Source of the DNA: a virus | Taxonomy: Duplodnaviria > Caudoviricetes | Length of the DNA stretch: 53,709 bases | Strand: one strand, 5' to 3' | IMG/VR virus record: IMGVR_UViG_3300044999_000048 | Coordinates: 1-53,709 of that record | Shown here: positions 1,893-53,373 of the stretch, one piece after another | How positions within the stretch are numbered: position 1 is the stretch's first letter | Layout: the number at the start of each line of letters is the position of its first letter | Position numbers and translations under genes: made by a program | Notes under the pieces: generated by a model | What the model was told of the DNA's origin: nothing | The model's database searches: none | Seen by the model: the letters and a program-made list of their open reading frames with translations, nothing else

Positions 1893-3089
1893 CTAAGCCG
1901 TCGGCGGCTGATCGGAAACCGTGGCGAGCAGGTCCGCGTAGGCCGTTTCTACCGCCTTAAAGTCTGCAGAAAGCCCTTCGTTGCGCACAAACGCTGTGAC
2001 CGCGTTCATCCCGGTCGGCCAAGTCATTGCTGCGACCCGTTCGAGCGCGTTCAGGGCCACGATCTTTTGCCCCTCGGGCGCGCCCTTCAGGTCTTCGACC
2101 CGCAAGATACGCTTCAGGAAGAACACGAGTTGGTCGGGCGACGATTGCACCTTCGCCGCGAGTTCCCGGGCCCAGGTCTTGAGATCTTTCTTCTGCTTGC
2201 CGTTGGTGCCGGTCGGCTCCATGGGCGGAATATTCGCCTTGGGAGGGCCCGAGGGCGCCGCTTGCGCGGCTGGCTGGGCAGTTTCCTTGGGCGGCTGTTT
2301 CTTAGCTGCAGGAGCCTAGGCAGGCGGAGATGTTGCAGCTTTTGCCGGCTGCGCGGGCGCTTGGGCAGGAGCGACAGTTCTCGGCTCTTCCGCCCCGGGC
2401 TCGAGATCTTCCATATCTTGTGTGAACAGACCAGAGCTGCGTGTGGCAGAAAGAACCGCGCTGACCTTTGAGCGCTTCAAGGACATCTTCAAAATTGTAT
2501 TTTTTGAGTCGCTCATGTCAGGATTCAAGACACGGCCTATCGTTTGCTCGGTAATCCGTTTATCGCCGTCCAAAAACTTTGATCCGCAACCACCTTTTTT
2601 GGCAAAACACAGCCAACCGCCTCCGTATTCTTCCCGGCCCTTAATGATGGCTTCGGCACCACACGCCGGACATTTCCGCTTTCCTTCCCGCCAGCGATAT
2701 TTGCTTTCGTAGGAATTGCAATTTCCGAGTCCAGACGCAACAAAAATGCCGGACCCTTTTTTGGTGAGGTTGCACTTCATCGTGTAATCAAACAAGCCAC
2801 GGTCGTAGTCCTCAACTTGTTGAACGATCACGTAATCGTCGGCAAGTCCGTAAATCTCACAAAGTTTGTCCGCGCCAGGCTTGTACAAAGTCGGTTTTTG
2901 CGTTCCAGGAATCACGCCATAGTCTTCATTTTCAACAAGGTATTCCTGAACAAACTCACGAAACTCTTTCAACCGTTGCTTGGCAACTGCCAGATTCATT
3001 ACTGGAGCAATCAGGTAAGCATCGGTATCCACCATGCGCTGAAGCTGTTGTCCACCAACTTCAACGATTGCCTCTTTCGGTGTACTCAT
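1893..3089 (-). CDS. Putative phage ssDNA-annealing/recombination protein with Zn-ribbon insert; interrupted by in-frame TAG at 2316-2318
   Basis: KPTLYKPGADKL, CPACG...CFAKKGGCG and NTILKM..KRSKV.AVL...FTQDMED motifs. ORFs 2316..3089 and 1893..2222 are in frame and joined by a continuous Pro/Ala/Gln linker across one TAG. Strong SD (GGAGGAGG) before ATG 3089. Confidence 0.6.
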
Positions 3090-3111
3090 TTCTTCCTCCT
3101 CCTATAAATTA

Positions 3112-3256
3112 AAACCATACCTCACCAAACCTTACCGCAGCCGACCTTAGCTTGCCGCACTATGCCTTACCAAACCACACCGTGGCTTACCTTGCCACAC
3201 CTGAACTTGGCAGACCAAAGCTCACCTCACCATAGCGTGCCGCACCGAACCCTACC
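3112..3256 (-). repeat. Array of 29 in-register GGY-NN pentamers (candidate guide RNA), downstream of the Cas7-like gene
   Basis: Minus strand GGTAG GGTTC GGTGC GGCAC GCTAT GGTGA ... GGTAT GGTTT. 21/29 units start with exact GGY, position 3 is always a pyrimidine, and there are no indels. Confidence 0.92.
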
Positions 3257-3860
3257 GCGAAACTTCAAACCTAGTGACAGCGTAACGACCAAATGTCGGA
3301 CGAAAATCTCCAACACCGATTAATCGTCCTCCTGCCTGGATCGTCTCGTTCAGCAACGCAGGAGAAATGTATTCAGGCAGCAAAACCTGAAAATCGAAAC
3401 CCACTCTCCAGCCAGAAAGAAGCCCGGGCCGATGACGAGTAATTCCGTTGCGCTGGATCATCACGCGCCGGCGATCAACAAAATCCCATTCTTTCTTGCC
3501 GACAGAGCACAGATCGGTAAGATTTGCGATTCCGGCCTTGAACAAATCCATAGCCGACTTACGTGGCGAGCGCGGGTCTTGCTTGTATTTCGCGGCGTTG
3601 ACTACCGTCATCCGAAAATATTCGGTTGGAATCGAAAGAAATCCTCTCTCGTCTCGGTAAACGTAAGATTCAAGGTCATCTTCCTTTTTGGCCTTGGAGC
3701 CTTTCGCAGCCTTCGATTTCGCGTCAATTCCATCAACCGACCAACGATGGAAAAGAAACGCAGCCGTGCCCTCGACTTCTATGTGCGCGATGTACGGAAC
3801 TTCAATTGCGCTTGCGCCATCGTTTGAAACATCGCTCAGAATTGCCGCCTTTTGTGTCAT
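3252..3860 (-). CDS. Stand-alone Cas7/RAMP-like protein (Vipr-like), 202 aa
   Basis: N-terminal strand IEVEGTAAFLFH, LSIPTEYFRM..VNAA helix, RHRP and a C-terminal Gly-rich loop GRLIGVGDFRPTFGRYAV typical of RAMP folds. True start is ATG 3860 with SD GGAGAGG; the ORF track extension to 3998 merely translates the repeat array. Confidence 0.75.
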   Translation of the reverse strand: MTQKAAILSDVSNDGASAIEVPYIAHIEVEGTAAFLFHRWSVDGIDAKSKAAKGSKAKKEDDLESYVYRDERGFLSIPTEYFRMTVVNAAKYKQDPRSPRKSAMDLFKAGIANLTDLCSVGKKEWDFVDRRRVMIQRNGITRHRPGLLSGWRVGFDFQVLLPEYISPALLNETIQAGGRLIGVGDFRPTFGRYAVTRFEVSR

Positions 3861-3885
3861 TTTGTGATCCTCTCCGTTTTTAATT

Positions 3886-4025
3886 TGACCACACCTTGCC
3901 AAGCCGAACCGCAGCCCACACGACCTGACCATGCCCGACCATACCGAACCGCACCCTGCCAATGCGGGCCATGCCACACACAACCAAAACCCGCCCAACC
4001 CTACACTGCCTCGCCTTACCTAACC
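3886..4025 (-). repeat. Array of 28 in-register GGY-NN pentamers (candidate guide RNA), upstream of the Cas7-like gene
   Basis: Minus strand GGTTA GGTAA GGCGA GGCAG TGTAG GGTTG ... GGCAA GGTGT GGTCA; 22/28 exact GGY; ends in an AT-rich run followed by the SD. Confidence 0.92.
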
Positions 4026-4032
4026 ACGACAT

Positions 4033-4046
4033 CTCCAAATTTGGAG
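4033..4046. promoter_or_regulatory. CTCCAAATTTGGAG palindrome (one of 15 copies in the window)
   Basis: Perfect 14-bp palindrome immediately 5' of the upstream pentamer array; see findings for all copies. Confidence 0.75.
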
Positions 4047-4067
4047 ACTTGCCTTGTCTGAATAAGG

Positions 4068-4096
4068 TTTTTACAGTGACGCTTGCTGTTTGTCAA
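4068..4096 (-). promoter_or_regulatory. Leftward sigma70-like promoter for the array/Cas7-like/recombination operon
   Basis: TTGACA-17 nt-TAAAAA on the minus strand; spacer contains AACAGCAAGCG. Confidence 0.5.
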
Positions 4097-4146
4097 GCAA
4101 AATTATCGCGGTTGCTGTTTTTAGGAAACTACACCAATTACCCGAA

Positions 4147-4176
4147 TTGCCAAACCGTTCTCGCTTGCTGTATATT
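4147..4176 (+). promoter_or_regulatory. Rightward sigma70-like promoter, probably giving a leaderless mRNA
   Basis: TTGCCA-18 nt-TATATT with ATG at 4183, 6 nt after the -10, and no SD. Confidence 0.55.
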
Positions 4177-4182
4177 GGCCGC

Positions 4183-4389
4183 ATGAGAAAGAAACCCAAA
4201 CAAGATATGGTCAAGCTTGGCGAAAGTGGCGGTCACGCCACGCTCAAGAAACGAGGACGGAAATTCTTCTCCGAAATCTCCAAGAGGCGTAAAAACTTTA
4301 GCGGCGGGCGCCCTCCTAAAGACAAGGAAAACCATCCGTTAGAAAAAGACAAGCCCCGACCATCCCAAGTAGACGCATACGAAGATTAG
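4183..4389 (+). CDS. Small basic KGG-like protein, possible regulator (68 aa)
   Basis: MRKKPK...LGESGGHATLKKRGRKFFSEISKR resembles the KGG/GsiB repeat motif; first gene of the divergent unit. Confidence 0.5.
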   Translation: MRKKPKQDMVKLGESGGHATLKKRGRKFFSEISKRRKNFSGGRPPKDKENHPLEKDKPRPSQVDAYED

Positions 4390-6612: not shown

Positions 6613-9600
6613 TTAGAACGGTCGTGGTGTAGGTTCTAGGCCGTATTCACCTCGTCCGCCACCGCCGATCGGTGCCGGAGGATTTGCCAACCTATACGCC
6701 GGTGAAATTTCTTTTGCCAACCGGTTCAGTTCACCTGGGATTTTCTCCATCTGGCCTTTGACCACATCTTCTCCCATCGAAAGCAAGGAAGTTGCGCCTT
6801 GTAAGACGTCCCACAGATACGGCCCGAGCGCAAATCGCGCGACGGCCGAGCGCTTGTCGCCCTTGAACCGGTCAAATGACTCGATCATGTTCGATACGAG
6901 CGACGCCCCAATCGCCATGCCGGCATCCTCGGCAACCCGGCCTAGCAACGTGAGTGGGTGGTAGGTTTCCTTCTGGCCAAGTTCCTTGGTCCGTTGCGTG
7001 CGCCCGCGCGCCAGCTCCTGCAGGTCGAGGAACAACTCACCGCCAGCCGGCGCCAGCATCAGGAACGGCACCCACGGCCGGAAATTACCGCGCATCGCTT
7101 CTTTCATTAGAAGATTGCTGAAAAATTTTCCGTTTCGGTAGACGTATGCCTTGAGCATAACGGTCGTGCGCAGGAGCGCCGCTGCGTGCTGGCCAGCTTC
7201 ATCCTTAGCCCGCAGGCGCCACATGGGCGGCAGTTCGGTCGGATCATTAGTTCCCTGCGTAGCCGCGGCCCACCGGGCCCCGGCACGTTTAACCGCTTCG
7301 TCACTCCATTTTCCATTTTGAATGGCCTCGTCAATCAGTTTGTCGGGTACACCCATCAAATCACGGGCTATATGCCGGTAGGTGTGTTGCGGCTTATCCA
7401 TCAGCTTTGGCAATGCCCACCGGGTCAGGAAATTTTCCGCTACTTTGTTGGCCATCACGCGGCTGAATTGATCAAGGCCGCTTACGCCGACAAATTTCAG
7501 GGCGCGGTCCCCGATCCGGTGGCTAACGCCGTACTCGGTGGAAATAAAATCCAGGGTACGTTCTGGCGCAATCGCGCCGGATTCAATCGCCGCGCGGCGC
7601 GCGGCTGGATAATCACTCAGAATTTGGCCAAACGACCGCGCAAACTCCGGAACCCCTACCGCGTCAAACATTCCGGACTTGATGCTGTGAAACATCATCG
7701 GGATAGCCGTGAAATTCATCTTCGTCAGCGCGACCCAGTCCGACGCGAAGGTAAGAAACGACTTCGGCCCTTCGTAGAACGGCTGGCGCATCAGCAGATC
7801 GTCAAAAATCTCGCGTACCTGGCGCCGACCAGCCTCTGGAAGTTGCACAATCTTCCCGTCCAGCACGGCGCGCTTCTGGCCAAACACCTTCGTGCGCCCA
7901 ATCGCTTCGGCAGCGCCATTTAGGTAGCGATAGACCGAGTGGAGCGTCTTTTCGTACCCTTCGATGTCGTGCTCGCGCGTGCGTTCGAGGTTTCCCGATA
8001 GCGGCACGTCCGGCAAGCGCCGGGAATCCAGGAAAGTTTCCGCCGCTACACGAGAGATCCCGCGGCGCTGCATGATGCTAGAAACGATTTCTTCACGCTT
8101 TTTGCTGCCAAACTTGAACACGTCTTCGTCGTAAATGCGCGGCATGTAGCCCGGCCGGCGGTCCTTTGGGAAATCGAAAGTATCGGTTTTCCCGGTAGCT
8201 TCGTTGAACCGCTCGAGTTGCACGCCAGCCTCTACTGCTTTGTCCTGAACATCGAAAAAAAGGTTTTGGAGTTGCTGAACCGCCTTTTCTTGCCAGGAGC
8301 CCGCCTTGACTTCTCGCTCCCCTTCTTTCATTTCCCACACTTCCGTCATGTTTTCCGGCGTGATTTTGTGTTCCTTCACCCAATCGACAAGCTGCCCCAT
8401 CCAGTTGCCGGCCAGCAGCGATCGCTGCGCGTGGTATTCCTGGATGTCGTGGTTCAGTTCGCCGCCCAGTTCCGGCATCCCAGACTTTTTAGTCACCGAA
8501 TCGATGATGTCGCGCCCACTGCGCAAGGCAAACTGCCACATCGAGACGTTTCCAGTTTTTCCAGCCTGCACGAATTCGTAGGCTTCCTTCCCGCCATGCT
8601 TCTTCATCCACTCAATTTGATCTTTGAGCACGCCATGCACCACCGGAGCGTGGTTCCCATCCGTATTGGCGATCTCATCCTCGGCCAGGGCGGCTACGCC
8701 GCTGACAAACTTCTGTTTGTCCTCTGCTTTAGGTAGGGCTTTACCCAAATCGCGCTCGATTGCCTTGGGATCCAGGAAACTGTCCAGCACGTCTTGTATT
8801 TTCTTGTCCAGCGCCGGGTCAGCCGACAAGCCAGCATCACGCCGAAACGTGTCTTTCAGCTCCTTCGACACGCGCTTCGCAGCGTCAATCGGGTCCACGC
8901 CCATTAAAAATGTGCCTTTACCAGGAGGTTTGCCCTCCATATTTGGAGGCGGAGTCAGCCGGGCGCGCACCTTCATACCCTTATTAGGGCCCGTCTGGCT
9001 CTTGGCGTCCGGGATGTCAACCTGTTTGTGTGACTTGAACACTTTCGACGTGTCCAGGAAGTCGGTAAACTCTTTGCCGGCTGCCTTGACGTCGTCGCCA
9101 TGCTCGTACTGTAGCGCTTCGTTCGCGTTAGACAGCCCTTCGGTAAGTGGAGACCTGAAATCGACGCCGTTTACGACCGCGTTGAGCGCCTCCAGGCGCG
9201 GCACGATTCGACCCACCACAAGCTTCACTTCCGGCGCGACGTTGCTTAACAGAAACGCTGCGTTCGTGTCTGACTTCGTGCCGTATCGCCACGTTCGGCC
9301 GGCACCTTGCTCAAACGCATAGCCGGACCACGGCAAGCCGTGATAGATCGAGAACCGCGGAGCGTCGCCAGCCGTGTCATGCAGGCTAAGCCCAAGCCCG
9401 CCAGCAGCGTAGGTTGTGTAGAAAACCTTTTTCTGCCCGGTCTGGAAGCCTGCAAGCTGCTTTTCGCGCGCCGAGGAGTAGCCGCCGCTGTAGTCGGCAA
9501 AGTCTTCGCCAAACGCTTCCTTAAGCGCTGGAACAAACCCTTGAATGGGCGGCAAAATCTTGGAAATAAAGCCGTTCATCGAAGCGTCTGGATCAACGAG

Positions 9601-12600
9601 CGGCTTATAGAGCGTGTTGACCTCGCTGTGCGTCTCCGAGAAAATCGGTACTTGGTAACCTGCCTTCATGGCCCGTCGCGCCATCTCGATCGTGGCCGGG
9701 ATCCGTGTTGACTCGATGTAGTGCTTCAGGTAGTTCATCTTATTCGCGGACACTACCATCATCATTCGCTTGTTGCCGCGACGCTGGTAGTACTCCCTGG
9801 CCAGCGCAAACGCGCGATCGATGTTGCGCACACCTTGAACCTGCTCCGGCGTGAGCGGCACAACAGCAAAGTGAGCGTTGAAGCCGTCGAAGTTCTTCTC
9901 TTGGTTGATAAACTGCCCGCGCTCAATCAATTGCTGGCGCAGCTTTTCGAGTTTGAATGGGTTGGTATGGCCTTGCCAGGCGCCTTCGGCGCTTCGGCTA
10001 ATCCCGAATTGCCTGACCCACTGATCAAACGGCCGGCCTTTCCACAGACCAAGTTTGGTTAGGTATTGCAGTTCGGCCGCATTCGTGAACGGCGTAGCCG
10101 ACAGGTACATCACCTTCTTGGCGTTGTTGCCCATGTCGGCTACGAGGCCGCCGCGCTTAGAGGTTTCCGACCCGCGCGCCTGTCCCGCTTCGTCGACGAC
10201 TACCAAGTCCCACGGAAATTTTTCAATTCCTTCGCGGTTGCGTGCCGTATCCATCGTGGTAGCGTACACGCCCGGTTTGGGAGGCTCAGCCTTGGCTCGC
10301 GGATCGTAGTAGTGATCGGTATCAGCGTTGACACCAAAACCTTTGGCGATGTCGACCCAGTCGTCGACCAGCTTACGGCTGGCCGTCAGGTAAAGAATGT
10401 GCTTGAACTGCTCTGGCGCGCTCTCCTGGACGTGACGAATAATCGCTGATGACAGGTAGCTCTTTCCCGTACCAGTAGGCAGGCCAAGCACAACCCCGCC
10501 AGAACCATCGAGCAACTCGGAAAGCCCATAGTCCGCAATCGCGTCTTGGCCCGGGAAAATCAGTTTGTCAGCAATATGCTGAAAAACACGCTGCGTCGGA
10601 ATTCGCGCATTTGGAGGTAAACGTGCGTCGTTGACCACTTTTTTCCACGCTTCAGTTTTCCAAGCTGGTTGCCTAGAACGTTCTGGCTGGGGCGTTAATT
10701 CGGCTGGGGCGACATTTGATAGCCCTGTAGCTCGCGCTGTACGTCCTCTTCCTGCGCCAACCTTTCCACCTGCTCCCGGAACCCCTCCTGGGGCTCCTCC
10801 GGCTCCGGGCTGGACGGTGGCGGCGCCTGGTTCATCAGCTTTTCCAGTTGGCTTAACGTCTTGCAATGGAGCAGGCGCATTAGGTAAGCCTCCCTCGGCA
10901 GCGGCTTTCTCTCCACTGGTCACCTCCCTGAAAACATTCATCTTCTCTCGAACTTTTTGATCATCGGCCCCACCACGAATCGCTGCGACCGCGCGCTCCC
11001 AGGCATGATCGGTCATCATTTTCCAAGCTTCTTCCAGGTGCGGGCGCGCCCATTCGCCAACGGTTTCAATCGTCTTCTTGGCCACATCTGCGAAACTACG
11101 AATCCCGCGCTCGACGTGGTACCCCATGACCGTGGCAATGTCTTTTAGGTCTTCGGGATCAATGCCGGCCTGCAGGCGCCCGCGGCGCTTCTTCATTCGT
11201 TCAATTGCCGCATCGGCCGCGCTTTTCGGGAAAATCGTGTTCTTGTCTTCGGGCGTTGGCGCTATCTTACCTTCCATTTCGACGTTACGGGCCCGAATTC
11301 CCTGTTCGATGTTTTTAGGCATAGTTAACGACGGTGGAATTTCACCAGGAGCAGGCCCTTGCGGGGCTACTGCCTGTGCAGGCTTACGCTGCTGGACCTC
11401 GGGCGGCACAATTTCCAGAAGCCGTTGTTTTAACTCTGCTGCGCGCTGCGCGGCCATCTGGCGCTCTTCCGGAGTGGCTTTCTCATCCCGAGCAATAGCT
11501 TCTGCTTTGGTAATTTCCGCTTGCAATGGGATTTCTTGAGATTTCTGAGATAACGGCTCTGGTGGCGCAGCCATTTTCGGCGCTTCCAGCGGCGGAGGAG
11601 GCGCTGGCACCCCCTCCGGAACCTGCGCTTCCTCCGCCAGCAGGCTTGGTCCGACCACGGCGTTCATGGCACCGCGGAGCAAGCCGGCTTTATCTGGAGC
11701 TTCACCTGCGCCGCCAAACATCGTGCCCTGGTCCTTCCGCCCAGCGCGCATGGCATCGTCGGCATAGGTATTCAAAATGTCAGACACATTGGCCGGCCGG
11801 CGCGCATTTCGGCCCAAAATCGTCAATAATTCACGCGCCGCCGGGCTGATATCCTGGCCGTACAACTTTCCCTGGCTGAGGTAGTCCGCGACCGATTGGC
11901 CTTGCTCTCTCAAGGCCGACAGCTTCCGCGCAGCCTCCACTATGTCGTCAGAGAGACGCAAGTCGTGTAAGGTGCCTTCGTCGACCAACTGATTGAGTTG
12001 CGCGAACTTCGGCGCCGCCGCGAGCATCGCTTTTGTGGCCGCGCGAATATTATTGTTTGGGTCCTCAGAGAGCTTCTCCATGAGCGCTTCCGACCCCGGG
12101 AACGCTTTAGCGAAGATAGCCGCCTGGATCCGGCGCACACCGTCCTGGTTGATTTGCCCATTCGCCATCATGAACTTCGACCGGTCGGCTGGAGAGATCA
12201 CCTCGCTAAAGAATCGCTGGATAAACCCTTGATTGCCAGCCACAAACAGGTTGCCGTCCTCCGACGGCTGCAGAATGGCCATCAGGTCCGGCGTCATAGC
12301 CTGCGAATCGGCCTTGGCCGTTTCGACTTGGCTCATCGAAGCTTCAAACGGCTCGTTCAGTTCCCTGGAAAACGCTTCGGCAGTAAGTCCAATACTTTCA
12401 AGCGGCGTACGGCGTATCCGGACCAGCACCGGTTGTCGCATTTTTGCTACAGTTTCCGAGTCCACTCCAAATTTGGAGTAATTCTGCGCGAGCCACGCCT
12501 TGTACTCATCCGCTTTCTTATCACCAATTTGGTACAGGAATTTCAAGACCATCGAGCGCATGTTGCCGCCATCGACGAACAGGTCATCACCCACCACCGG

Positions 12601-15480
12601 TGCGCCGTTATTTCCCGAGAAATTCTCGCCCAGCATGGACGGATCAAATTGGGCCCCAATGCTCAGGAATTGGTCCTTGCTAAACGCTCGGTTGCGGTTC
12701 CGCGGCTGGCGCCGGGCCGGATAGTTTGGATTCGGATTCAAATCCGAGTCGTGTGACGGCTCGATTTGCTTGGCTTCCACCACGGCATATTGGAAGTCGA
12801 CCGAACTGCCGCGCGCCGTCTTGATCGTGCCGTTACTGCCAAGCTGCCGCGGCAGGATCGGGACCGCGGGGCGGTCGCGCTCCGGATCAGGCTTGGCCTC
12901 GGGCGGCAATTTGTCGTTCAAAGCATCTTGTTGCTTCGAAAGGGCTTGAATCGTCTTGTCCGCATCGTCGACAGCCTTTTCCAGACGGCCGTAATCTTCT
13001 GGGACCGACTGTCTCAAAGCTTCCTGGACGTCGTCGCGACGTTCTTGCAGCGATCGAATCGCTTCCGCCAGCGTGGTGACGAGGTGACGCGCGTCCTCGG
13101 CCTCTTGCCGTGCCTTCCTAGCCTCTTCTGGCGTCGTTTCCAGAATATATGGCTTATCCTCCAGTTGCGCTTGCCCACGGTCACGGAATTCGTCTTCTCC
13201 TGGGGTTTTAGAGAGTTCCGCTTCTTGTCGCTGCTGGCGAGCGTACTCGTCGCCGACAATTGCGCGATCGATGCGCTGCTCGTATTTTCGTTGTTCGTTG
13301 CGTCGTCGGCGCTTGTCGCCCTTGATCGCCTCGTCGATGCGTTTTTCGAGGGCTTCTTCAGCCTTCTGGGCGCGCAGGCGCGCTTCCTCAGCATCCTTAA
13401 CCATATTCTCCAAAAGCAGCGATTGCTCGCCAGGGAGCAGGCGCGGGCCGGTCGGAGCACGGTCCACCGGCGTAGTAACACTTTCAACTGGTTTAGGTGT
13501 AGCTGTGAGTACCGGTGGTCGCTCCGTGGTCTCTGGAGGCTTGGGAACACCACCCTCACCCAGGCGCGCTTGCGGCGTAGGAGCCAATCCTTGACGTATC
13601 TCCGGGCCCGGGAGCGGTGCTGGAGGCGCGGGGCGCGCAGCGAGTTCTCCAGGAGGTTGACGCACAATGGCAGTAGCTCGAGCGCGCCGATCCTCGTACT
13701 GCTGTACAACAGGATTGTTTTTAATGAATTCTTGACGAATGTTCTCGATTTCTTGACGCCTAGCAAGCATCTCTCGATCATAATCAGCTCGGAGATCGGC
13801 TAGTCTTTGCTGCTGCTGGTGCGTTACCTCATCTTCGATCAGCCGTTGCGCCTCGACTTCTTGGGCAATCATCTGGTGCCAAGCGGGCTCAACCTCTTCA
13901 ATTGTCTTGCGAGCCTCCTGCTGAGCGTTGAAAAGTTGCTCGTTAAACGCTTTGTTTTGTTCCGCAAGTTTCTTGGCCTGTTCCTCCGGATATCCCATGG
14001 CGGCAACGTCGCCGGGCTCGCCCATGACGTACTTCGCGCGCGAAAGTAGGGACTTGGCCTCGTCGACCCATCCGCGGCGCAGGAGTCCGTCCACTAACTC
14101 TGAGTAGGCTTTGATGTCGGCTTCGTTGGCGCCATAAGACTCCTTCGTGCGCGCATTGGCCCACTGACGGAAGGCCGGGTCAGAGAATTTTTCAGTTTCC
14201 TCGACAGGAACTTTCTGAAGAGCTTCTAAATCCTTTGGATTTTTTGTCTTTTCCCAGTCGGTTGTAACGCCATCGCGCGGTTTTTCGTGGATGCCAAATT
14301 GGTGCTCGAGATAAGCGGTCTGCAAAGCCTTGATTTGCGGCCCAACGCGCTCTTCGGGAGCAGCCTTTGTACCCTTTGGGACTTCTGTTGGGAATTTTTT
14401 GCCCGTAAACTTCTCGTACGCCGTTTTGATGGCTGCGAGGTCACGGTTGTTTTCAGCCTTTTGCAAGTCTTCGAGAAACGGCGCGCGGCTCTTGTTGGCT
14501 TTCAGAACTTGTTCTGACACCTCGGCGCGCTGCGCTTGTGGCAGATCCACCCAATCACGCTTGTAGGTTTTCTTCGAAACTGCGTCCAGGGTGTTTAGTG
14601 TTCCCATCGTCCGAATTTTGTGAATCGAAGAAAGCGTTCCCAAAGCACTGAAAGCGCCGTCGATGCCAGCTCCAAGCGTATCAACCGCCGCACCTTCGTA
14701 ATCTCCAGATTTGAACTTGCCCCACGCGCTTTTTGCACCCTCGTAGGCGCCGTACCCCTGCATGGCGGCAAAGCCGACGTCAGCGCCGGTGCGAAACATC
14801 CCGGCCGCACCTTTTAGGCCGGCTACGCCGCCCGTTTCTCCGCTCATCAGCAACACCAAATTGCGCGGATCAAGAGCTAAGTGTTGCACCGTGTTCATCA
14901 CCTTATCCGCTAAAGCGTTGGCAATCCTTTGCGCGGGAGTGTAGGGATGTCGACGTGCTTCTTCTTCGAGGGAAACCTGCTGGCCTTTATCCCGGTCCAT
15001 GTACTGGTAGGCTTCGAGGCGGTCTTGTTCTTGGTATTTTTTCTTGGCTGCGTCCGCCTTGTCGATGAACTCATTGATCTTGTCGAACGGCTCTACCAGG
15101 TAGTGATTGGCTCGCGTGAGCCACCACGACTGCGCTCCCATGTGCGGATCTTCATGTTTTGGCAACTCCATTTCTGGATGCCGCACGTAGAACGATTTGT
15201 CCGTCTCGCTCATCCAGGAAGGAACCTGCCGAGCCGGTTCAGGGATGGAAACGCGCTGCCCGGGCCCAAGCGTCGGCTTAGGCGGTGGCGCTGTCATCTG
15301 TGCGCGCTTGGTGGTCAGGAAGGAAGAGACTTGGCCTTTAAGGTTTTTGGGGGACGCAGGTGTGGGCGGTTTCGCGGCACGTTCCGGCACGGATGGCGGG
15401 GTAGGGGCAAGAGACGCACGGCGGGTAGTTAAAAAACTGTGGAGCTGCGTTTGAAGATCGTTGCTTTGGTCCGCCATCAA
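6613..15480 (-). CDS. Large polyvalent (probably virion-injected) protein: coiled coils, DdrB-like ParB domain and strawberry-notch-like SF2 helicase
   Basis: YAVVEA..IEPSH...NYP...QPRNR...GAPVV...VDGGNMR (DdrB-ParB-like); GLPTGTGKS, VVVDEAG, YLSATP, AAGGLGLSLHD, LPWSG..EQGAGRTWRYG (SF2). Last gene of the ejection-type cluster. Confidence 0.8.
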   Translation of the reverse strand: MMADQSNDLQTQLHSFLTTRRASLAPTPPSVPERAAKPPTPASPKNLKGQVSSFLTTKRAQMTAPPPKPTLGPGQRVSIPEPARQVPSWMSETDKSFYVRHPEMELPKHEDPHMGAQSWWLTRANHYLVEPFDKINEFIDKADAAKKKYQEQDRLEAYQYMDRDKGQQVSLEEEARRHPYTPAQRIANALADKVMNTVQHLALDPRNLVLLMSGETGGVAGLKGAAGMFRTGADVGFAAMQGYGAYEGAKSAWGKFKSGDYEGAAVDTLGAGIDGAFSALGTLSSIHKIRTMGTLNTLDAVSKKTYKRDWVDLPQAQRAEVSEQVLKANKSRAPFLEDLQKAENNRDLAAIKTAYEKFTGKKFPTEVPKGTKAAPEERVGPQIKALQTAYLEHQFGIHEKPRDGVTTDWEKTKNPKDLEALQKVPVEETEKFSDPAFRQWANARTKESYGANEADIKAYSELVDGLLRRGWVDEAKSLLSRAKYVMGEPGDVAAMGYPEEQAKKLAEQNKAFNEQLFNAQQEARKTIEEVEPAWHQMIAQEVEAQRLIEDEVTHQQQQRLADLRADYDREMLARRQEIENIRQEFIKNNPVVQQYEDRRARATAIVRQPPGELAARPAPPAPLPGPEIRQGLAPTPQARLGEGGVPKPPETTERPPVLTATPKPVESVTTPVDRAPTGPRLLPGEQSLLLENMVKDAEEARLRAQKAEEALEKRIDEAIKGDKRRRRNEQRKYEQRIDRAIVGDEYARQQRQEAELSKTPGEDEFRDRGQAQLEDKPYILETTPEEARKARQEAEDARHLVTTLAEAIRSLQERRDDVQEALRQSVPEDYGRLEKAVDDADKTIQALSKQQDALNDKLPPEAKPDPERDRPAVPILPRQLGSNGTIKTARGSSVDFQYAVVEAKQIEPSHDSDLNPNPNYPARRQPRNRNRAFSKDQFLSIGAQFDPSMLGENFSGNNGAPVVGDDLFVDGGNMRSMVLKFLYQIGDKKADEYKAWLAQNYSKFGVDSETVAKMRQPVLVRIRRTPLESIGLTAEAFSRELNEPFEASMSQVETAKADSQAMTPDLMAILQPSEDGNLFVAGNQGFIQRFFSEVISPADRSKFMMANGQINQDGVRRIQAAIFAKAFPGSEALMEKLSEDPNNNIRAATKAMLAAAPKFAQLNQLVDEGTLHDLRLSDDIVEAARKLSALREQGQSVADYLSQGKLYGQDISPAARELLTILGRNARRPANVSDILNTYADDAMRAGRKDQGTMFGGAGEAPDKAGLLRGAMNAVVGPSLLAEEAQVPEGVPAPPPPLEAPKMAAPPEPLSQKSQEIPLQAEITKAEAIARDEKATPEERQMAAQRAAELKQRLLEIVPPEVQQRKPAQAVAPQGPAPGEIPPSLTMPKNIEQGIRARNVEMEGKIAPTPEDKNTIFPKSAADAAIERMKKRRGRLQAGIDPEDLKDIATVMGYHVERGIRSFADVAKKTIETVGEWARPHLEEAWKMMTDHAWERAVAAIRGGADDQKVREKMNVFREVTSGEKAAAEGGLPNAPAPLQDVKPTGKADEPGAATVQPGAGGAPGGVPGAGGKVGAGRGRTARATGLSNVAPAELTPQPERSRQPAWKTEAWKKVVNDARLPPNARIPTQRVFQHIADKLIFPGQDAIADYGLSELLDGSGGVVLGLPTGTGKSYLSSAIIRHVQESAPEQFKHILYLTASRKLVDDWVDIAKGFGVNADTDHYYDPRAKAEPPKPGVYATTMDTARNREGIEKFPWDLVVVDEAGQARGSETSKRGGLVADMGNNAKKVMYLSATPFTNAAELQYLTKLGLWKGRPFDQWVRQFGISRSAEGAWQGHTNPFKLEKLRQQLIERGQFINQEKNFDGFNAHFAVVPLTPEQVQGVRNIDRAFALAREYYQRRGNKRMMMVVSANKMNYLKHYIESTRIPATIEMARRAMKAGYQVPIFSETHSEVNTLYKPLVDPDASMNGFISKILPPIQGFVPALKEAFGEDFADYSGGYSSAREKQLAGFQTGQKKVFYTTYAAGGLGLSLHDTAGDAPRFSIYHGLPWSGYAFEQGAGRTWRYGTKSDTNAAFLLSNVAPEVKLVVGRIVPRLEALNAVVNGVDFRSPLTEGLSNANEALQYEHGDDVKAAGKEFTDFLDTSKVFKSHKQVDIPDAKSQTGPNKGMKVRARLTPPPNMEGKPPGKGTFLMGVDPIDAAKRVSKELKDTFRRDAGLSADPALDKKIQDVLDSFLDPKAIERDLGKALPKAEDKQKFVSGVAALAEDEIANTDGNHAPVVHGVLKDQIEWMKKHGGKEAYEFVQAGKTGNVSMWQFALRSGRDIIDSVTKKSGMPELGGELNHDIQEYHAQRSLLAGNWMGQLVDWVKEHKITPENMTEVWEMKEGEREVKAGSWQEKAVQQLQNLFFDVQDKAVEAGVQLERFNEATGKTDTFDFPKDRRPGYMPRIYDEDVFKFGSKKREEIVSSIMQRRGISRVAAETFLDSRRLPDVPLSGNLERTREHDIEGYEKTLHSVYRYLNGAAEAIGRTKVFGQKRAVLDGKIVQLPEAGRRQVREIFDDLLMRQPFYEGPKSFLTFASDWVALTKMNFTAIPMMFHSIKSGMFDAVGVPEFARSFGQILSDYPAARRAAIESGAIAPERTLDFISTEYGVSHRIGDRALKFVGVSGLDQFSRVMANKVAENFLTRWALPKLMDKPQHTYRHIARDLMGVPDKLIDEAIQNGKWSDEAVKRAGARWAAATQGTNDPTELPPMWRLRAKDEAGQHAAALLRTTVMLKAYVYRNGKFFSNLLMKEAMRGNFRPWVPFLMLAPAGGELFLDLQELARGRTQRTKELGQKETYHPLTLLGRVAEDAGMAIGASLVSNMIESFDRFKGDKRSAVARFALGPYLWDVLQGATSLLSMGEDVVKGQMEKIPGELNRLAKEISPAYRLANPPAPIGGGGRGEYGLEPTPRPF

Positions 15481-43120: not shown

Positions 43121-43360
43121 CTAATCACTTCCCTTCTCCAAATTTGGAGTCGCGACATTCATCAAATGTTCCGTACAAGTTATATCGCAAATCGCACCGT
43201 TTTTGAAAACAACTTCCATCCTGCCAAATCTTCGATTCGGCTTCGTGAACCGAGACACGGCTTCAAACAATGCACGATTAACAAGAATTACCTGCTTCTC
43301 GGGCCCCACCAGAAAATAGCGCCCAGGTTCCGCCTTCAAAGCTGCTTCAGCCGTGCTCAT
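43121..43360 (-). CDS. Hypothetical protein
   Basis: ATGA overlap with the portal stop; FG.MEVVFKNG.I motif. Confidence 0.5.
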   Translation of the reverse strand: MSTAEAALKAEPGRYFLVGPEKQVILVNRALFEAVSRFTKPNRRFGRMEVVFKNGAICDITCTEHLMNVATPNLEKGSD

Positions 43361-45210
43361 ATTTTTGGAAGCCCCGCCATTGCCTGCCGGCCAGCTCCTC
43401 TTCCCGGAGGCATAGGCGGCGGAGGCTCCGCCTTCAGCCGCTTCTCGATTTCGTCCACGTTCAACCCCAAATCTAGGTTCTCGATCAAGGTCCGGCGATC
43501 GATGTCGCGCATGACGCGCAAGCGCGCAAGCGTAGCGATCCGCTCCATGCGGTTCAAGTTCAGCAGCGTTCCACCTTCCAGCAAAAATTCGAATTGATGA
43601 GCCAGCCGGGACTGGTCCATATCTTTCTGGTCTTCTTGCGGGTTCCAGTCCACTTCCCGGAAAATTCCCTCCTTCGCGCCTGGAAGATAAAGCTGCCGCC
43701 GGTCAGTGTAGAACTGAAAGAAATTGTGAATCTGCATGGATCCCAAGTCACGTAACATGACCTCGATGTTACGCCCCTTCAGGCGCAACGGAGTCTGCTG
43801 CGTTTGACGCATGTTTTCAAGTGTGTCACCCCCGGGAACCTGCTTCTTGTGCAGCGCTTCAGACACGGCCGCAATGCCGGATCCGCGGTCCATTTCCTTG
43901 CTCGCCCAACTGAGCATTTGAAAAACAAACGATGGCAGGTTTGGTGTGGGACCAAACGCCGGCGGGTTCGGGGAAATCGGGCTGTACTGCGCCTTGGCGC
44001 CCGGCATTCCCCAATCGATTGAATCCCAAACCGAGTCACTAAACGCATTCTCCGGAGCATAAAAGATCGGGTTAACCGCTTTTTTGATCATGTCCAGAAT
44101 GCCCGCGAGCACGTTGTTGATCACATCCTGCATCGGCATCATAGGCCGAATTTCAGAAAGCCCCGTAAACTGCCACGGCACCGCATTCAAACGCAGCGCT
44201 CCGAACGGATGTTTTCCATGCAAATAAGGATTGGGAATGTCGGCCATCCACTCGTCGCCGCCCATCACGATCAGCCGACCGCGCGGGTAGAGCGGCTCGC
44301 CCGGGCCGACCATGTAAGACCAATTCGACTTCGGACGTCCCATCAAGACTGGTTTATTGCTTGTGTTGTAAGAATAATCCTTGAACCAGAATTCCCGGTA
44401 CAGCGCCATCGGATAAACGCTCGAGCGGGCTTGCTGCTCGATTCCCATAACGCGCCGCATCTGCGGAGAAATGGAATCCCAAAGCGTCTGCGTGAAGTAG
44501 GAAGGCCGGTTGTTGCCGCCCATGGAAAAATTCGAGTAGTTTGTGTCCGGCTTGACCAGTTCCCCGCGCAGCTTAAATTTTCTGCGGAACCAGCCGAGCG
44601 ATTGCACGCTGCGGTAGATGATGCATTCGGACTGCTGAATGTCCGTCCGCGCCTTGAGCGGCAGCACGTCGTGCGGCCCGAGCGGTAAAACTTCGAAGTC
44701 CCCGCGGCCCATCTTCAACTCTTCGTTCCAGGAAAGCTTGAAATACCCCATGCAGAGCAAACCGTAGACAATCCCCATGGCGAGCGACAGATCGATGTTG
44801 TTCGACAGCCACCAGGAGCGGGTTACTTGCGTCAGTTTTCGGGCAATGTTCTTTTTTTTCTGGTCGTCCGGATCGCTTTCGCGGACTTCAAAGACCGGGC
44901 GAATGTCGGTCAGAGTCGAAACCAGTTCCCAAACCAACCCCCAAACGCGATTGTCAACAGGAGAAGCCCTGTAGGTAGGACGCTTCTTGGTCCACTGCTT
45001 TCCCATGATGTAGTCAATTTGCTGCGAGACTTTCTGGATTTCCTCGTTTTGCGAGTGTTCGTACACAGCCTCTTCATAGGCCGCGCCGGTCCACTTTTTT
45101 ACTTGGCTATCATAGGAAGGAAATCCAGTCGCGGAAGACGGTGAATATTCACTCCCGGTATCGGGATGCAGGCCGTACTGTGGTCCCACTTGGAAAGGGA
45201 GACTGCTCAT
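43357..45210 (-). CDS. Portal protein (P22/podovirus-like)
   Basis: 617 aa; DYIMGKQW, NRVW..V...V..LT..RP.F, NPY.HG.HPF, Q..IN motifs; downstream of terminase. Confidence 0.85.
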   Translation of the reverse strand: MSSLPFQVGPQYGLHPDTGSEYSPSSATGFPSYDSQVKKWTGAAYEEAVYEHSQNEEIQKVSQQIDYIMGKQWTKKRPTYRASPVDNRVWGLVWELVSTLTDIRPVFEVRESDPDDQKKKNIARKLTQVTRSWWLSNNIDLSLAMGIVYGLLCMGYFKLSWNEELKMGRGDFEVLPLGPHDVLPLKARTDIQQSECIIYRSVQSLGWFRRKFKLRGELVKPDTNYSNFSMGGNNRPSYFTQTLWDSISPQMRRVMGIEQQARSSVYPMALYREFWFKDYSYNTSNKPVLMGRPKSNWSYMVGPGEPLYPRGRLIVMGGDEWMADIPNPYLHGKHPFGALRLNAVPWQFTGLSEIRPMMPMQDVINNVLAGILDMIKKAVNPIFYAPENAFSDSVWDSIDWGMPGAKAQYSPISPNPPAFGPTPNLPSFVFQMLSWASKEMDRGSGIAAVSEALHKKQVPGGDTLENMRQTQQTPLRLKGRNIEVMLRDLGSMQIHNFFQFYTDRRQLYLPGAKEGIFREVDWNPQEDQKDMDQSRLAHQFEFLLEGGTLLNLNRMERIATLARLRVMRDIDRRTLIENLDLGLNVDEIEKRLKAEPPPPMPPGRGAGRQAMAGLPKI

Positions 45211-46003: not shown

Positions 46004-48031
46004 CTAAAAAGTTTTCCAATCATCAGCAGCCGTGTCCTCATCGCCTGGCGGTTGCCGCTCGGTGCCTTCCAGTTGAGAATACAAAATCAACTCAGCCGGA
46101 ATCTCGCGGTCGTAATGTAGCACACCTCGCGCACTATGTGGATGGTCGTGTATAGGAGAAGCATCCGTATTGAAATAATCGCGCTTCTTCCGTTCTTCCT
46201 CGGAAACCTTGTCTCCACGAACCTCAAGCGAAGCTTTCTTGCCATAATCTGAATCATGGGCGCAAAACAAGGCGATCATGGCTGAAAAAATTCTGTCATC
46301 GTGATTTCCTTGCCCCTCAAACCTGGCACTTCCTTCTTCCGCAGCGAAGTCCAAGCACTCATCGATGAGCCACTTGCTACGAATAATGACGGATCGATCG
46401 TCGAGTGCTTCGGAAAATTTTGTAATCAGCGAATCTCGAGTCTTGATGTTGGTCCACCAACCAAGCAGGTCGGTCATGAAATTCTTGATCTTGTCGTAGT
46501 GCTTCCACCTAAAAATGTTGTAGTATCCCAACTCGCGGAAAATATGGCTATTCGTTGTCAAGCCTGGGCCGTTGCACTCCACGGCAATTTGGCAGTTGTT
46601 GTACCACTTCGCCAAGGCGCACACGACATCCCCGAGCGGCGTTGGATTGATCCATCCATGCCACTCGGCCACATACTCATCCGGCTCCACGCGCTTGCCG
46701 ATCTTGAGAACGTACGCGCTCGAGAAATCTCCGCCTTCCGCTCCTAGTGCAACGTCCACCCCGATGAAATACTTTTCTTCCTCTTGCGGCTGTTCCCAAA
46801 CAAGCAGCCGGGCACCAGGACCCTCCGCCACCGGCAAGAACTCCGCTTGCTTGGTTTCCTGCAGCCGGATGTTTGGGATTCTGGCCGAAGTCAGTGAAAT
46901 TTCGCCAAACCAAAGCGGATCACAGCACTGCAATTGCAGCACTTCGTACAGACGTTCCTTGTTGAACGCCGTGATGCCGCTGCCCTGAAACGCCTCCATC
47001 CAATCAACGCTCGGGTACTCCTGAAAAAACGCCCAAGGGTTTTTGTTGATGGCGATTGATTCCTGAATTTTTTTCCTTCGCCACAGGAAATGCCCGTTCG
47101 GAATCTCGACACTCTTTTCCTTGAGAATTTTGTCGTGAATTTCCTTTTCCTGAACCGTCAACTCGAATTTCTCTCCCGCAGGAACCGGGATGAAATACTT
47201 CCTTACCCGGTAGGATTCAATAAATACCGGACGCCAATCCACATGCCCTTCCATGGCGCCAATCCAGAGGTGGTGCCAGGCATTGTTACGGCCGCGCGCC
47301 GTCGATTCCATGACGCCCAAGGTGTCCGGAGCGTTCATGGTAGGGAAAATATGTTTGGTAAGAACATCTGGATTATCCCAAAGAGAAATTTCAGACAGTA
47401 AAACACAACGCAAGGTCTTGCCAACACCCACGCCGGTTGCCTTGTTGGCCGCCTGACAAAGAATCTGGGACCGCAAACCAGGGTTTGTGAGCCGATCCTC
47501 CGGCCGCTTGCGGTCAAACACCAGATAGGTTCCCTTGGCTTCGTAGCGCGCTTCCGGACGCATCCACCACGGCAGGCACTCGTACGCCGTGCGCGACATA
47601 TTAAATAGGTAGTCGACTTGGTCGGGATCCTGAGCAACCACGAGCGAGTTACACGCTTCCGTGAAAATGGTTTTGTGAAGAAGCCGAGCTGCTCCGTAAG
47701 TAGAAATTCCCAACTGCCTTGCTTTGAGTATGATGACCTTGGCTTTCCCGTTTTTCCTTTGTTCTTCCAGAACGATATCGTCAATGATGATTTGGCTGTC
47801 CCAAAAAACGATGACGGCCAGCCCTTCACCTTCGGTAGGAATGACGTGGTAATTCTCGGCGTAGTACCGGAAGTCCTTCATGCAGCGTTCAATTTCTATG
47901 TTGATGAAGGATTGCTCGAACGCGGTTAGGAGGGTATAGGCCGCGCGGAGGTCGTGCCCCGCACGCTCGTAATAGCTATCCAGCACTTCAATGGCTTCGT
48001 CAAGGTAAGGGTCCTTCCGTTTCAAACGCAT
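46004..48031 (-). CDS. terL: Terminase large subunit
   Basis: Walker A ILKARQLGIST, Walker B VLLSE, ESTARG, nuclease YFIGVDVA.G...DFS, AVECNGPG, HDDRI. Confidence 0.95.
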   Translation of the reverse strand: MRLKRKDPYLDEAIEVLDSYYERAGHDLRAAYTLLTAFEQSFINIEIERCMKDFRYYAENYHVIPTEGEGLAVIVFWDSQIIIDDIVLEEQRKNGKAKVIILKARQLGISTYGAARLLHKTIFTEACNSLVVAQDPDQVDYLFNMSRTAYECLPWWMRPEARYEAKGTYLVFDRKRPEDRLTNPGLRSQILCQAANKATGVGVGKTLRCVLLSEISLWDNPDVLTKHIFPTMNAPDTLGVMESTARGRNNAWHHLWIGAMEGHVDWRPVFIESYRVRKYFIPVPAGEKFELTVQEKEIHDKILKEKSVEIPNGHFLWRRKKIQESIAINKNPWAFFQEYPSVDWMEAFQGSGITAFNKERLYEVLQLQCCDPLWFGEISLTSARIPNIRLQETKQAEFLPVAEGPGARLLVWEQPQEEEKYFIGVDVALGAEGGDFSSAYVLKIGKRVEPDEYVAEWHGWINPTPLGDVVCALAKWYNNCQIAVECNGPGLTTNSHIFRELGYYNIFRWKHYDKIKNFMTDLLGWWTNIKTRDSLITKFSEALDDRSVIIRSKWLIDECLDFAAEEGSARFEGQGNHDDRIFSAMIALFCAHDSDYGKKASLEVRGDKVSEEERKKRDYFNTDASPIHDHPHSARGVLHYDREIPAELILYSQLEGTERQPPGDEDTAADDWKTF

Positions 48032-50881: not shown

Positions 50882-50955
50882 TGGTAGCGGGGCTCAGAAT
50901 TGAACTGAGGTCTGTGGCTTATGAGGCCACCGGATTACCGCTTTCCTACCCCGCG
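50882..50955 (-). tRNA. tRNA-Met(CAT), initiator-like
   Basis: CGCGGGG...CCCCGCT-A-CCA with C1:U72 mismatch; anticodon arm GTGGC-CTCATAA-GCCAC; GTTCAA T-loop. Confidence 0.9.
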
Positions 50956-50966
50956 TCCGAAGTCTA

Positions 50967-51134
50967 CTATAGATCGTCCCGTTTCGCCTTCCGAAGTTCC
51001 TCACTGATCATTCTCAACACTTCCGGGACCACAGCGTTGAGCATCGGCACGGAGAACCGTTCCTGGTCGGGCGACATCCCTTGTCGCTCGATCGCCGCCT
51101 TCAGGCGCTTGCGGATTTCGATAACTCCAATCAC
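50967..51134 (-). CDS. Small hypothetical protein (55 aa) between tRNAs
   Basis: SD GGAG then GTG: MIGVIEIRKRLKAAIERQG...; ends TAG TAG. Confidence 0.5.
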   Translation of the reverse strand: MIGVIEIRKRLKAAIERQGMSPDQERFSVPMLNAVVPEVLRMISEELRKAKRDDL

Positions 51135-51147
51135 TGGCAACTCCAAC

Positions 51148-51223
51148 TGGTGTGCCCGGTGGGACTTGAACCCACAACACCTTGCTTAAAAGGCAAGTGC
51201 GCTGCCAATTGCGCCACGAGCAC
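51148..51223 (-). tRNA. tRNA-Lys(TTT)
   Basis: Canonical cloverleaf; anticodon arm CTTGC-CTTTTAA-GCAAG; GGTTCAAGTCC; encoded CCA. Confidence 0.93.
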
Positions 51224-51234
51224 AAAATTTAATG

Positions 51235-51311
51235 TGGAGCCCCTGGATAGCGTCCAGCTACCGCCCCCCCGGTTATATGCCGGGTGCTCTTATGGGCTGA
51301 GCTACAGGGGC
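51235..51311 (-). ncRNA. Non-canonical tRNA-like RNA (anticodon position TAT)
   Basis: GCCCCTG/CAGGGGC-T-CCA; all four stems pair, but A33, no D-loop GG, and T-loop CTGGACG. Confidence 0.7.
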
Positions 51312-51852: not shown

Positions 51853-52242
51853 CTAAAGATCTTCCCAGGGCGGCGTCCACTCCCAAATCGCTTGATGGCC
51901 AGTCGCTACAATAGGCTCATCGAACCGGCGAACCCTCCGCAACTTCCAGCCCCACCGCCCAGGATAGAAATCCCCATAATCATCCTTGATGCCGCGAACG
52001 TTTTCCTCTGTAAATTGCAGGTATTGTTCCAAGATGTGCGTCGAGACTACCGCGCCCCGCGGAATATAGTCAGGATCGTAGCCGAAATCCACACAGGCAG
52101 ACTTGTCTACCGTCTTCGCGGCGTGAATGGCAATCTCCCGTCCGAGCAAGAAATCCGAACCCTTCCAGTGCCGTGTCTCCCACAGCTTGCGGCCGTCCGC
52201 CATCAGGGAAGCCCAGGGTTGATGAAGCGAAAGAGTCCTCAT
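51853..52242 (-). CDS. ASCH-domain protein
   Basis: MRTLSLHQPWASL...G.K.WETR.W...IAIHA...P.GAVV...W.W.L...PI.A.G.Q.IW; ATGA overlap with the upstream gene. Confidence 0.88.
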   Translation of the reverse strand: MRTLSLHQPWASLMADGRKLWETRHWKGSDFLLGREIAIHAAKTVDKSACVDFGYDPDYIPRGAVVSTHILEQYLQFTEENVRGIKDDYGDFYPGRWGWKLRRVRRFDEPIVATGHQAIWEWTPPWEDL

Positions 52243-53189: not shown

Positions 53190-53190
53190 C

Positions 53191-53373
53191 TCAAAAAATC
53201 TCCACTTCTTCGGCCATCTGCTTCGCGGTTTGCGCGAACTGCTCGAGCCACTGCCAGTTCTCAAGCTCCCGCCACACCGGGTCACCAGGATCTTCCGGAA
53301 TGCCGCCACCAATCAGTTCGCCACGTTTCCGATCGATCGCGGCAAGCGCGCGGCCCCAGTAGTAGGCGCTCAC
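53191..53373 (-). CDS. Small hypothetical protein
   Basis: 60-aa ORF ending just before the DUF5131 start. Confidence 0.45.
   Translation of the reverse strand: MSAYYWGRALAAIDRKRGELIGGGIPEDPGDPVWRELENWQWLEQFAQTAKQMAEEVEIF

Follow-up and report, generated by a model that had tools for sequence, protein, structure and literature searches.

VIPR (Viral Interference Programmable Repeat) systems are a newly described form of RNA-guided DNA silencing with a gapped code (bioRxiv 10.64898/2026.04.26.720920, April 2026). According to the main text of that preprint and of the one reporting the structure (10.64898/2026.04.26.720927), one protein subunit takes up each GGY triplet of a guide RNA, the NN dinucleotides spell a gapped target, and silencing is achieved without a nuclease; it was abolished when NN pairing was disturbed (10.64898/2026.04.26.720920). 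A further preprint treats the role of the system of Escherichia phage SUSP1 against its satellite (10.64898/2026.10.15.759431), and in another VIPR arrays were recovered with a language model. The SUSP1 system belongs to type II; it consists of Vipr, vap1 and four vrRNAs, and its target is a satellite recombinase. Single-vrRNA systems and types I and III–VII are also named (10.64898/2026.04.26.720920), and the legend to fig. S18 of the same preprint describes staggered arrays that lack separate tails, the end of one vrRNA being the start of the following one. Here we describe a locus of this kind in the IMG/VR virus record IMGVR_UViG_3300044999_000048, which was analysed over its whole length of 53,709 bases (the window) and is linear and, by estimate, ~53% complete. 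A vipr gene is flanked there by two GGY-NN arrays and followed by a gene, g257, that is homologous to the predicted target of one guide.

Homology to Vipr, a Cas7-like predicted fold and the co-occurrence of the protein with arrays together identify the locus as a VIPR system. The kind is thus already in print; what is new is the layout without vap1 and tail, together with a predicted target homologous to the adjoining gene. We consider it very probable that an uncultured tailed phage from soil carries a VIPR system here in which one guide, D2, is aimed at a conserved phage gene motif and the phage's own copy of that gene escapes. A link to VIPR had been suggested in a first-pass annotation made from the letters of this DNA, and it turned out to be sound: the protein is homologous to SUSP1 Vipr. 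The mechanism proposed there, with one subunit per GGY, a target spelled by NN and a block that needs no nuclease, is the one reported in the VIPR preprints and would apply here by homology.

The locus resembles the type II system of SUSP1 in a single-RRM RAMP protein of ~200 amino acids with a G-loop of the form GVGD-aromatic-RP, in same-strand GGY-NN arrays on both sides of the gene, in its presence in a phage without cas genes or CRISPR arrays, and in a predicted coding-sequence target whose codons are read at positions 1 and 2 and skipped at the wobble base. All the features that define VIPR (small RAMP protein, GGY-NN units, phage carriage, no cas genes, predicted target with a 1-nt skip) are found here. 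Protein identity to SUSP1, however, is only ~27%, no vap1 homologue was found by sequence comparison, and the arrays are runs of 28–29 contiguous units that abut the next start codon, whereas those of SUSP1 have 9–16 units and a ~50-nt pseudoknot tail; vap1 and the 9–16 units capped by such a tail, both features of type II, are missing. Instead of a satellite recombinase, the predicted target is a gene that belongs to other phages and has a homologue in the neighbouring gene of this one. The long tail-less arrays of 10.64898/2026.04.26.720920 resemble the layout seen here, as judged by their description in the text.

A vipr gene between two GGY-NN arrays

The vipr gene (3860..3252, minus strand) encodes a RAMP/Cas7-like protein of 202 amino acids with the C-terminal end ...GVGDFRPTFGRYAVTRFEVSR. 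Its G-loop reads GVGDFRP, which bears out the RAMP-type glycine loop noted in the first-pass annotation, and a ribosome-binding site (GGAGAGG) lies 8 nt 5′ of the ATG. The protein had no match in Pfam, NCBIfam or PADLOC and falls in an unnamed family of PHROGs. Its sole sequence match in PDB was the SUSP1 Vipr protein (36pp_D; phmmer with a single sequence, E-value 4.7e-6). A profile of 25 homologues matched the same chain with an E-value of 1.9e-8 over residues 5–188 of 202, and a tblastn comparison of SUSP1 Vipr, from the gene in the phage record, with the window gave an E-value of 2.3e-7 at 26.6% identity.

We mapped by alignment 11 SUSP1 residues that are named as RNA or DNA contacts in the cryo-electron microscopy preprint (10.64898/2026.04.26.720927); 10 of them align to an identical or similar residue. 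Identical or conservative pairs (SUSP1/here) are H17/H38, K33/K53, E71/E80, K82/K91, K88/R97, R138/R144, D177/D185 and R179/R187; W178/F186 is still aromatic, M72/Y81 is a change of class, and R39 aligns to A57. Most of the ten aligned contact residues are invariant in the family. The residues holding GGY in SUSP1 (H17, R138, D177, W178 and R179) correspond, by alignment only, to H38, R144, D185, F186 and R187. Among the 25 homologues H38, R144, D185 and R187 are invariant and F186 nearly so; the G-loop residues G182, D185, R187 and P188 are invariant.

An AlphaFold2 model of the protein (predicted local distance difference test, pLDDT, 77.9; predicted template modelling score 0.73) retrieved 68 PDB chains with Foldseek at E-values of 1e-3 or below. 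Among the top matches listed, all belong to the Cas7 family: 8z4j_J came first (1e-6), followed by 6xn3_F, 6s6b_I and 7xsr_B, with template modelling scores of ~0.5, and the subunits matched by fold include type VII Cas7, Csm3, Cmr4 and Cas7-11. The first-pass annotation had proposed just this structural comparison, and its expectation of a Cas7-like fold was confirmed at the level of the model; since the thumb region (residues 136–139) is of low confidence, the RAMP-fold match rests on the whole model and the G-loop. We conclude that the protein is a Vipr, with a Cas7-like predicted fold. With the class 1 Cas7 backbone (type VII Cas7, Csm3, Cmr4, Cas7-11) it shares this predicted fold and would share polymerisation on a guide with a fixed step. 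It differs from the Cas7 backbone in its sequence (9–13% identity), in having no CRISPR array or other cas gene beside it, in a step of 5 nt instead of 6, and in a guide that is gapped instead of contiguous. None of the 42 open reading frames (ORFs) scanned in the ~53%-complete record matched a cas family in PADLOC, no CRISPR-like array was detected by Tandem Repeats Finder in the 53.7 kb, and the features of class 1 CRISPR-Cas (repeat-spacer array; partner Cas5, large subunit and Cas6) were not found in the record, so that the earlier statement that the window holds no other cas gene or CRISPR array stands.

The upstream array (4030..3886, minus strand) is 145 nt long and has 29 units in one register, 22 of them beginning with GGY. 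The downstream array (3251..3112, minus strand) begins at the base after the vipr stop codon and has 28 units in 140 nt, with 20 GGY. Thus, vipr and both arrays lie on the minus strand and all units keep one unbroken register. Canonical GGY-NN is found in 42 of the 57 units; G occupies position 1 in 53 of them and position 2 in 46, and a pyrimidine (C or T) occupies position 3 in 56. The GGY positions carry 1.0–1.6 bits of information, compared with 0.07 and 0.05 bits at positions 4 and 5. Six or more GGY per 10 in-register units were reached by these two blocks alone on either strand of the whole window, with a maximum of five in 20 shuffles of the window. When each array was shuffled with its own letters (2000 times), in-register GGY did not exceed 9 and 8 versus the 22 and 20 observed. 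The strict 5-nt register that had been claimed from the letters is therefore real and far beyond shuffled sequence.

Contigs of related strains break away from the window at particular points of the arrays, and these points served as provisional limits of guides. Because strain contigs diverge at 3950, the upstream array was split into U1 (4030..3951, minus strand) and the remainder, U2 (3950..3886, minus strand). Unit 13 of the downstream array starts at 3191, where strain contigs break (3189–3193), and the array was therefore read as two provisional vrRNAs: D1 (3251..3192, minus strand; units 1–12), directly 3′ of the vipr stop, and D2 (3191..3112, minus strand; units 13–28), which ends 22 nt 5′ of the ATG of the next gene.

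Predicted target of D2 and the phage's own allele

We wrote five 9-unit tiles of the arrays as patterns that skip 1 nt after each dinucleotide and searched IMG/VR for exact matches; a scan of this kind misses any target with a mismatch. The tile of downstream units 15–23 was found in 113 viral loci. The other four gave no match in IMG/VR (upstream units 17–25), two viral matches (downstream units 2–10), one match (upstream units 5–13) and three identical matches (downstream units 20–28), in each case without extension, and this excess of a single tile supports its reading as a guide. The match of units 15–23 does extend. Units 13 and 14, which precede it and were outside the pattern, also agree in 110–113 of the 113 loci at each read base; unit 26 agrees in 109–111 loci, and units 24 and 25 match the consensus at one base each. 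Compared with the consensus of the 113 loci, units 13–23 match at 22/22 read bases and units 13–26 at 26/28 (93%). One of the four provisional guides, D2, thus has a predicted target with an NN match of at least 80% outside its own contig and none inside it.

In the motif NTVLKMAKKRA..D (NTVLKMAKKRAK.D, a 42-bp target), the bases read by D2 stand at codon positions 1 and 2, and the skipped base is the wobble base. The read bases are near-invariant (110–113 of 113 loci), whereas the skipped ones take all four letters, and 66 distinct 48-mers occur. By blastp (E-value of 1e-3 or below), 109 of the 113 target fragments are homologous to g257. The 11-unit pattern is also present in 46 contigs of cellular genomes from many phyla. 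D2 runs in the same sense as the coding strand, so that its pairing partner would be the template strand of the DNA and not the mRNA.

Several comparisons set the background for this match. In five whole target-bearing viral contigs (78–86% complete) we found no Vipr, and no array segment besides D2 scored above 16/20 on them. As a control, 23 arrays of related VIPR loci reached at most 17/20 on ~410 kb of the same target sequences; accordingly, none of the 23 came to 18/20 as an array aimed at the same gene. The best scores of the array guides on the flanks of related VIPR loci equalled the null, and the best self-match in the window, 16/20, was that of shuffled guides.

By homology to SUSP1, Vipr would form a polymer along the array RNA at one subunit for each pentamer, with the GGY buried and the NN pair exposed in every subunit. 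These pairs would read double-stranded DNA in steps of two bases followed by one skipped base, and the filament, once bound, would prevent transcription without cutting the DNA. The guide of units 13–26 would in this way be aimed at NTVLKMAKKRA..D in a widespread phage gene family, with the skipped base at the wobble position.

The phage's own member of the family is g257 (3089..2316, minus strand; 257 amino acids), which starts 22 nt after the downstream array. Its site homologous to the D2 target (2501..2454, minus strand; NTILKMSLKRSKVSAV) agrees with D2 at 17/22 read bases over units 13–23 and at 20/28 (71%) over units 13–26, below the 80% cut-off used in 10.64898/2026.04.26.720920. Four residues are changed in the 11-codon core of the read site; as the own copy differs at read positions, it would escape. 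The own form of the motif is unique, one of 115 forms among the 120 nearest homologues. We scored D2 on two sets of homologues, found through other peptides, that overlap in part. In the IMG/VR set 25 of the 35 loci had the motif by pattern (10 dropped); D2 scores ranged from 20 to 26, with 18 loci at 23 or above. In the metagenome set the motif was present in 56 of 80 (24 dropped), scores again ranged from 20 to 26, and 40 reached at least 23. In each set no homologue scored lower than the own allele, which shares the minimum; this is suggestive of recoding for escape, a rank in the tail being no proof of it. Beside the g257 homologues arrays were absent in 34 of 35 IMG/VR loci (the remaining one had a weak run of 8 units) and in all 80 metagenome loci.

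A guide 22 nt upstream of g257 might instead regulate this gene by partial pairing, or the likeness of guide and gene might be a trace of common origin, with no part in any attack. The short distance and the 17/22 and 20/28 matches that the own site has kept would suit such a reading. We find it improbable, because the own site lies at the bottom of the homologue distribution and under the 80% cut-off, because the perfect match of the guide is to the family consensus (22/22 in the core) and not to its own gene, and because disturbed NN pairs abolished silencing in 10.64898/2026.04.26.720920. In the SUSP1 family, vrRNA-targeting guides match their own sequence less, and autoimmunity is thereby avoided (10.64898/2026.10.15.759431). 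Likewise, D2 has a lower score for the homologous sequence of its carrier than for that of rivals. The targets avoided in the SUSP1 family are vipr genes and vrRNAs, whereas here the target is a protein-coding gene and the guide lies directly upstream of a divergent own copy. A word search of the main texts of the VIPR preprints returned no mention of such an arrangement of guide and own copy or of an annealing protein as target.

The latter term refers to a possible function of g257. The protein matches phrog_10048 and has no sequence match in Pfam, NCBIfam, PADLOC or PDB. Its model is of middling quality (pLDDT 68.8), and the best fold match is human RAD52 (Foldseek E-value 6e-3; VIA Z 8.4 over 114 residues, root-mean-square deviation 4.2), a Z that is common by the tool's own account; many double-stranded RNA-binding domains with the same helix-sheet-helix arrangement rank just below it. 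Atlas features gave weak Rad52/Sak leads (scores 0.81–0.82). As a lead only, g257 is possibly a Rad52-like annealing protein with a zinc ribbon, and with a helicase nearby, an annealing protein of a recombination module is a fair guess. The nearest homologue in a named phage is that of Myxococcus phage Mx4 (48.5%). The 257-amino-acid ORF and the following one of 109 amino acids (2222..1893) form one frame broken by a single in-frame TAG (2316–2318, minus strand). A near-identical relative (P0271, 380 amino acids) has K at this position, and homologues are 300–450 amino acids long; the TAG could be a nonsense change, an assembly error or a site of read-through.

Related loci, strain variants and intergenic signals

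Homologues of the Vipr protein are numerous, with 6605 at E-values of 1e-3 or below in one search; a second search gave 1001 clusters at 50% identity. We examined 15 related loci, namely 13 from IMG/VR (51–76% identity, with two that seem to be a single sequence sampled twice), phage DSL-LC04 (58%) and Pseudomonas phage Medea1 (31%). Same-strand GGY-NN runs adjoin vipr in all 15, which answers in the affirmative the question, posed in the first-pass annotation, of whether homologues also have flanks with a 5-nt period. Elsewhere in the flanks (up to 4 kb per side) no array units were found except in one locus, whose opposite strand has more than 100. Several relatives in this clade have the tail-less layout too, and in others there is no more than a short hairpin.

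Two of the relatives deserve separate mention. The exceptional locus (L016, 3365–3916; an IMG/VR relative with a Vipr 51% identical) carries its opposite-strand units just upstream of vipr in runs of 44, 15, 38, 6 and 7, and another 36 units downstream on the vipr strand. In DSL-LC04 (OR003939.1; L001, 3980–4597) the Vipr homologue has three arrays 5′ of it and bears the annotation 'helix-turn-helix transcriptional regulator', apparently in error.

Strain variation was followed in assembled contigs at least 80% alike to region 2800–4300, taken from four soil metagenome runs of two studies; each contig joint is a single observation. The vipr coding sequence is kept (about 89–99% alike), and so is the candidate promoter region. 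Indels in the arrays are of 10, 35 and 50 nt, all multiples of five: the upstream array has a 10-nt deletion of two units at 3927 in four runs and a loose end at 3950, and insertions of +35 and +50 nt occur in downstream units 1–12 (3251..3192). Contigs diverge at 3163, 3189, 3202 and 3950, beyond which they continue with other RCC-periodic sequence. In the final 80 nt of the downstream array the only difference is 3161 T>C, by which the single AGT (unit 19) becomes GGT, and the NN letters of D2 are constant across contigs of the four runs. Guide arrays under selection for their register would look like this.

The D2 guide and g257 remain linked in the strain contigs. One soil contig (X5 record 24, window 2800–3831) is 98% identical on the side of g257 and the array and 89% identical on the side of vipr, which suggests recombination at the start of the downstream array. 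We tentatively propose, as a possibility that falls somewhat short of an even chance, that D2 and g257 form a linked 'weapon plus shield' module, by which rivals of many lineages would be silenced and the own copy spared. Under the same proposal, and just as tentatively, the module would stay together while the vipr side recombines, as the unequal flanks (98% vs 89%) of the one contig may indicate.

Vipr and the two arrays are probably transcribed in an early minus-strand operon. A weak candidate promoter for it (4096..4068, minus strand) consists of TTGACA (4096..4091), a 17-nt spacer and TAAAAA (4073..4068); a consensus promoter scan made no call because the second hexamer lacks the final T. 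The interval reported in the first-pass annotation ends at 4096 and so takes in the candidate −35 hexamer. Soil-strain contigs have lost 1 nt at 4075 and gained 1 nt at 4088; the two changes lie within the spacer and leave its length as it was. A perfect 16-nt palindrome (4047..4032, minus strand) lies just 5′ of the upstream array and gives the sole strong local hairpin when 4075..3861 is folded; it may act in the RNA, as a hairpin at the transcript's 5′ end, or as an operator. Upstream of the VIPR operon, a 143-nt region separates it from divergent genes, among them one for a helix-turn-helix protein, and contains three direct copies of the 9-mer GCTTGCTGT (4081–4171; two exact, one with a mismatch), one of them inside the spacer of the candidate promoter. 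These copies are candidate operator sites; the 9-mer is also enriched throughout the window, with 30 matches versus 13.6 expected.

The arrays reach to 22–25 nt from the next ATG, each stopping at the ribosome-binding site of the gene that follows. This position, together with the palindrome and the 9-mer copies in the adjoining intergenic region, might suggest that the pentamer tracts are DNA iterons or translational leaders and the RAMP-like protein an ordinary RNA-binding regulator. We give this almost no credence, as it would leave unexplained why NN varies beside a constant GGY, why the protein is homologous to one whose structure was solved as a filament on GGY-NN RNA, and why a foreign gene family is matched in frame at 22/22.

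The remainder of the record has the gene content of a tailed phage, with a portal gene (43357–45210), a large terminase gene (46004–48031), tail-fibre genes and an internal virion protein. A UvrD-like helicase lies at the left end of the window, and a tRNA cluster (50882–51311) comprises Met-CAT, Lys-TTT and Ile-TAT. A protein of 357 amino acids (52239–53312, minus strand) matches the PADLOC candidate-defence models PDC-M41B and PDC-M30B (E-value ~1e-72) and also phrog_2045, whose function is not known. A giant ORF of 2955 amino acids (6613–15480, minus strand) beside the virion genes has only a faint helicase-like match (DrmD, E-value 8e-5).

Possible activity of the system and its meaning for VIPR biology

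A number of observations weigh against an active VIPR system whose guide D2 spares its carrier. Fifteen of the 57 units are non-canonical, no structured 3′ tail was found at either array, Rfam returned no hammerhead or other family in 2900–4300, and the arrays fold no more stably than shuffles (z-scores −1.24 and −0.29). The limits of the vrRNAs are provisional, and U1, U2 and D1 had no target by the exact tiles tested. The 20/28 score of the own allele also occurs among the homologues, in 1 of 25 and 2 of 56. The candidate promoter has a poor −10 element, and the sequencing runs that contain 3000–4200 include no RNA run; expression, RNA binding and silencing would follow from the homology to SUSP1 Vipr. 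In SUSP1 vap1 is reported to be needed for protection (10.64898/2026.10.15.759431), and the best tblastn hit of SUSP1 vap1 (146 amino acids, from L229) to the window had an E-value of 9.6; on the 15 related loci the best was 0.15, both by sequence comparison only. Finally, none of nine neighbour proteins of the window recurs in the 15 related loci as a conserved accessory gene, and the UvrD-like helicase is likewise not recurrent. With no shared neighbours and no match to vap1, vipr and its arrays travel in this clade as a cassette without a conserved accessory gene.

The lack of vap1, of a conserved neighbour and of a tail, the 15 non-canonical units and the in-frame stop in the adjoining gene could also be signs of a decaying or inactive VIPR remnant that is out of use. 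This seems to us highly unlikely: the Vipr frame is intact and the functional residues named from cryo-electron microscopy are largely kept, strain indels hold the 5-nt register while the NN letters of D2 stay constant in contigs of four runs, and relatives of the same clade have the tail-less layout in common. In a working VIPR system the arrays would be processed into guides and would have a role in conflict between phages.

So far, natural targets of VIPR have been worked out mainly in enterobacterial and Pseudomonas phages. The soil-phage lineage described here appears to work without vap1 or a structured tail and, if active, narrows what is essential to such a system. The difference between the consensus site and the own allele bears on how a VIPR carrier tells itself from a rival with homologous genes. 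The predicted target also supports the published idea that wobble skipping lets one guide cover a gene family despite synonymous drift; the coverage here amounts to 66 distinct DNA versions in 113 viral contigs, with 46 contigs from cellular genomes in addition. If D2 and g257 do form a weapon and its shield, D2 would read those codon positions that do not vary in a motif which almost all members of the family have to retain, and would let the phage silence the target-family gene in rival or resident phages of many lineages.

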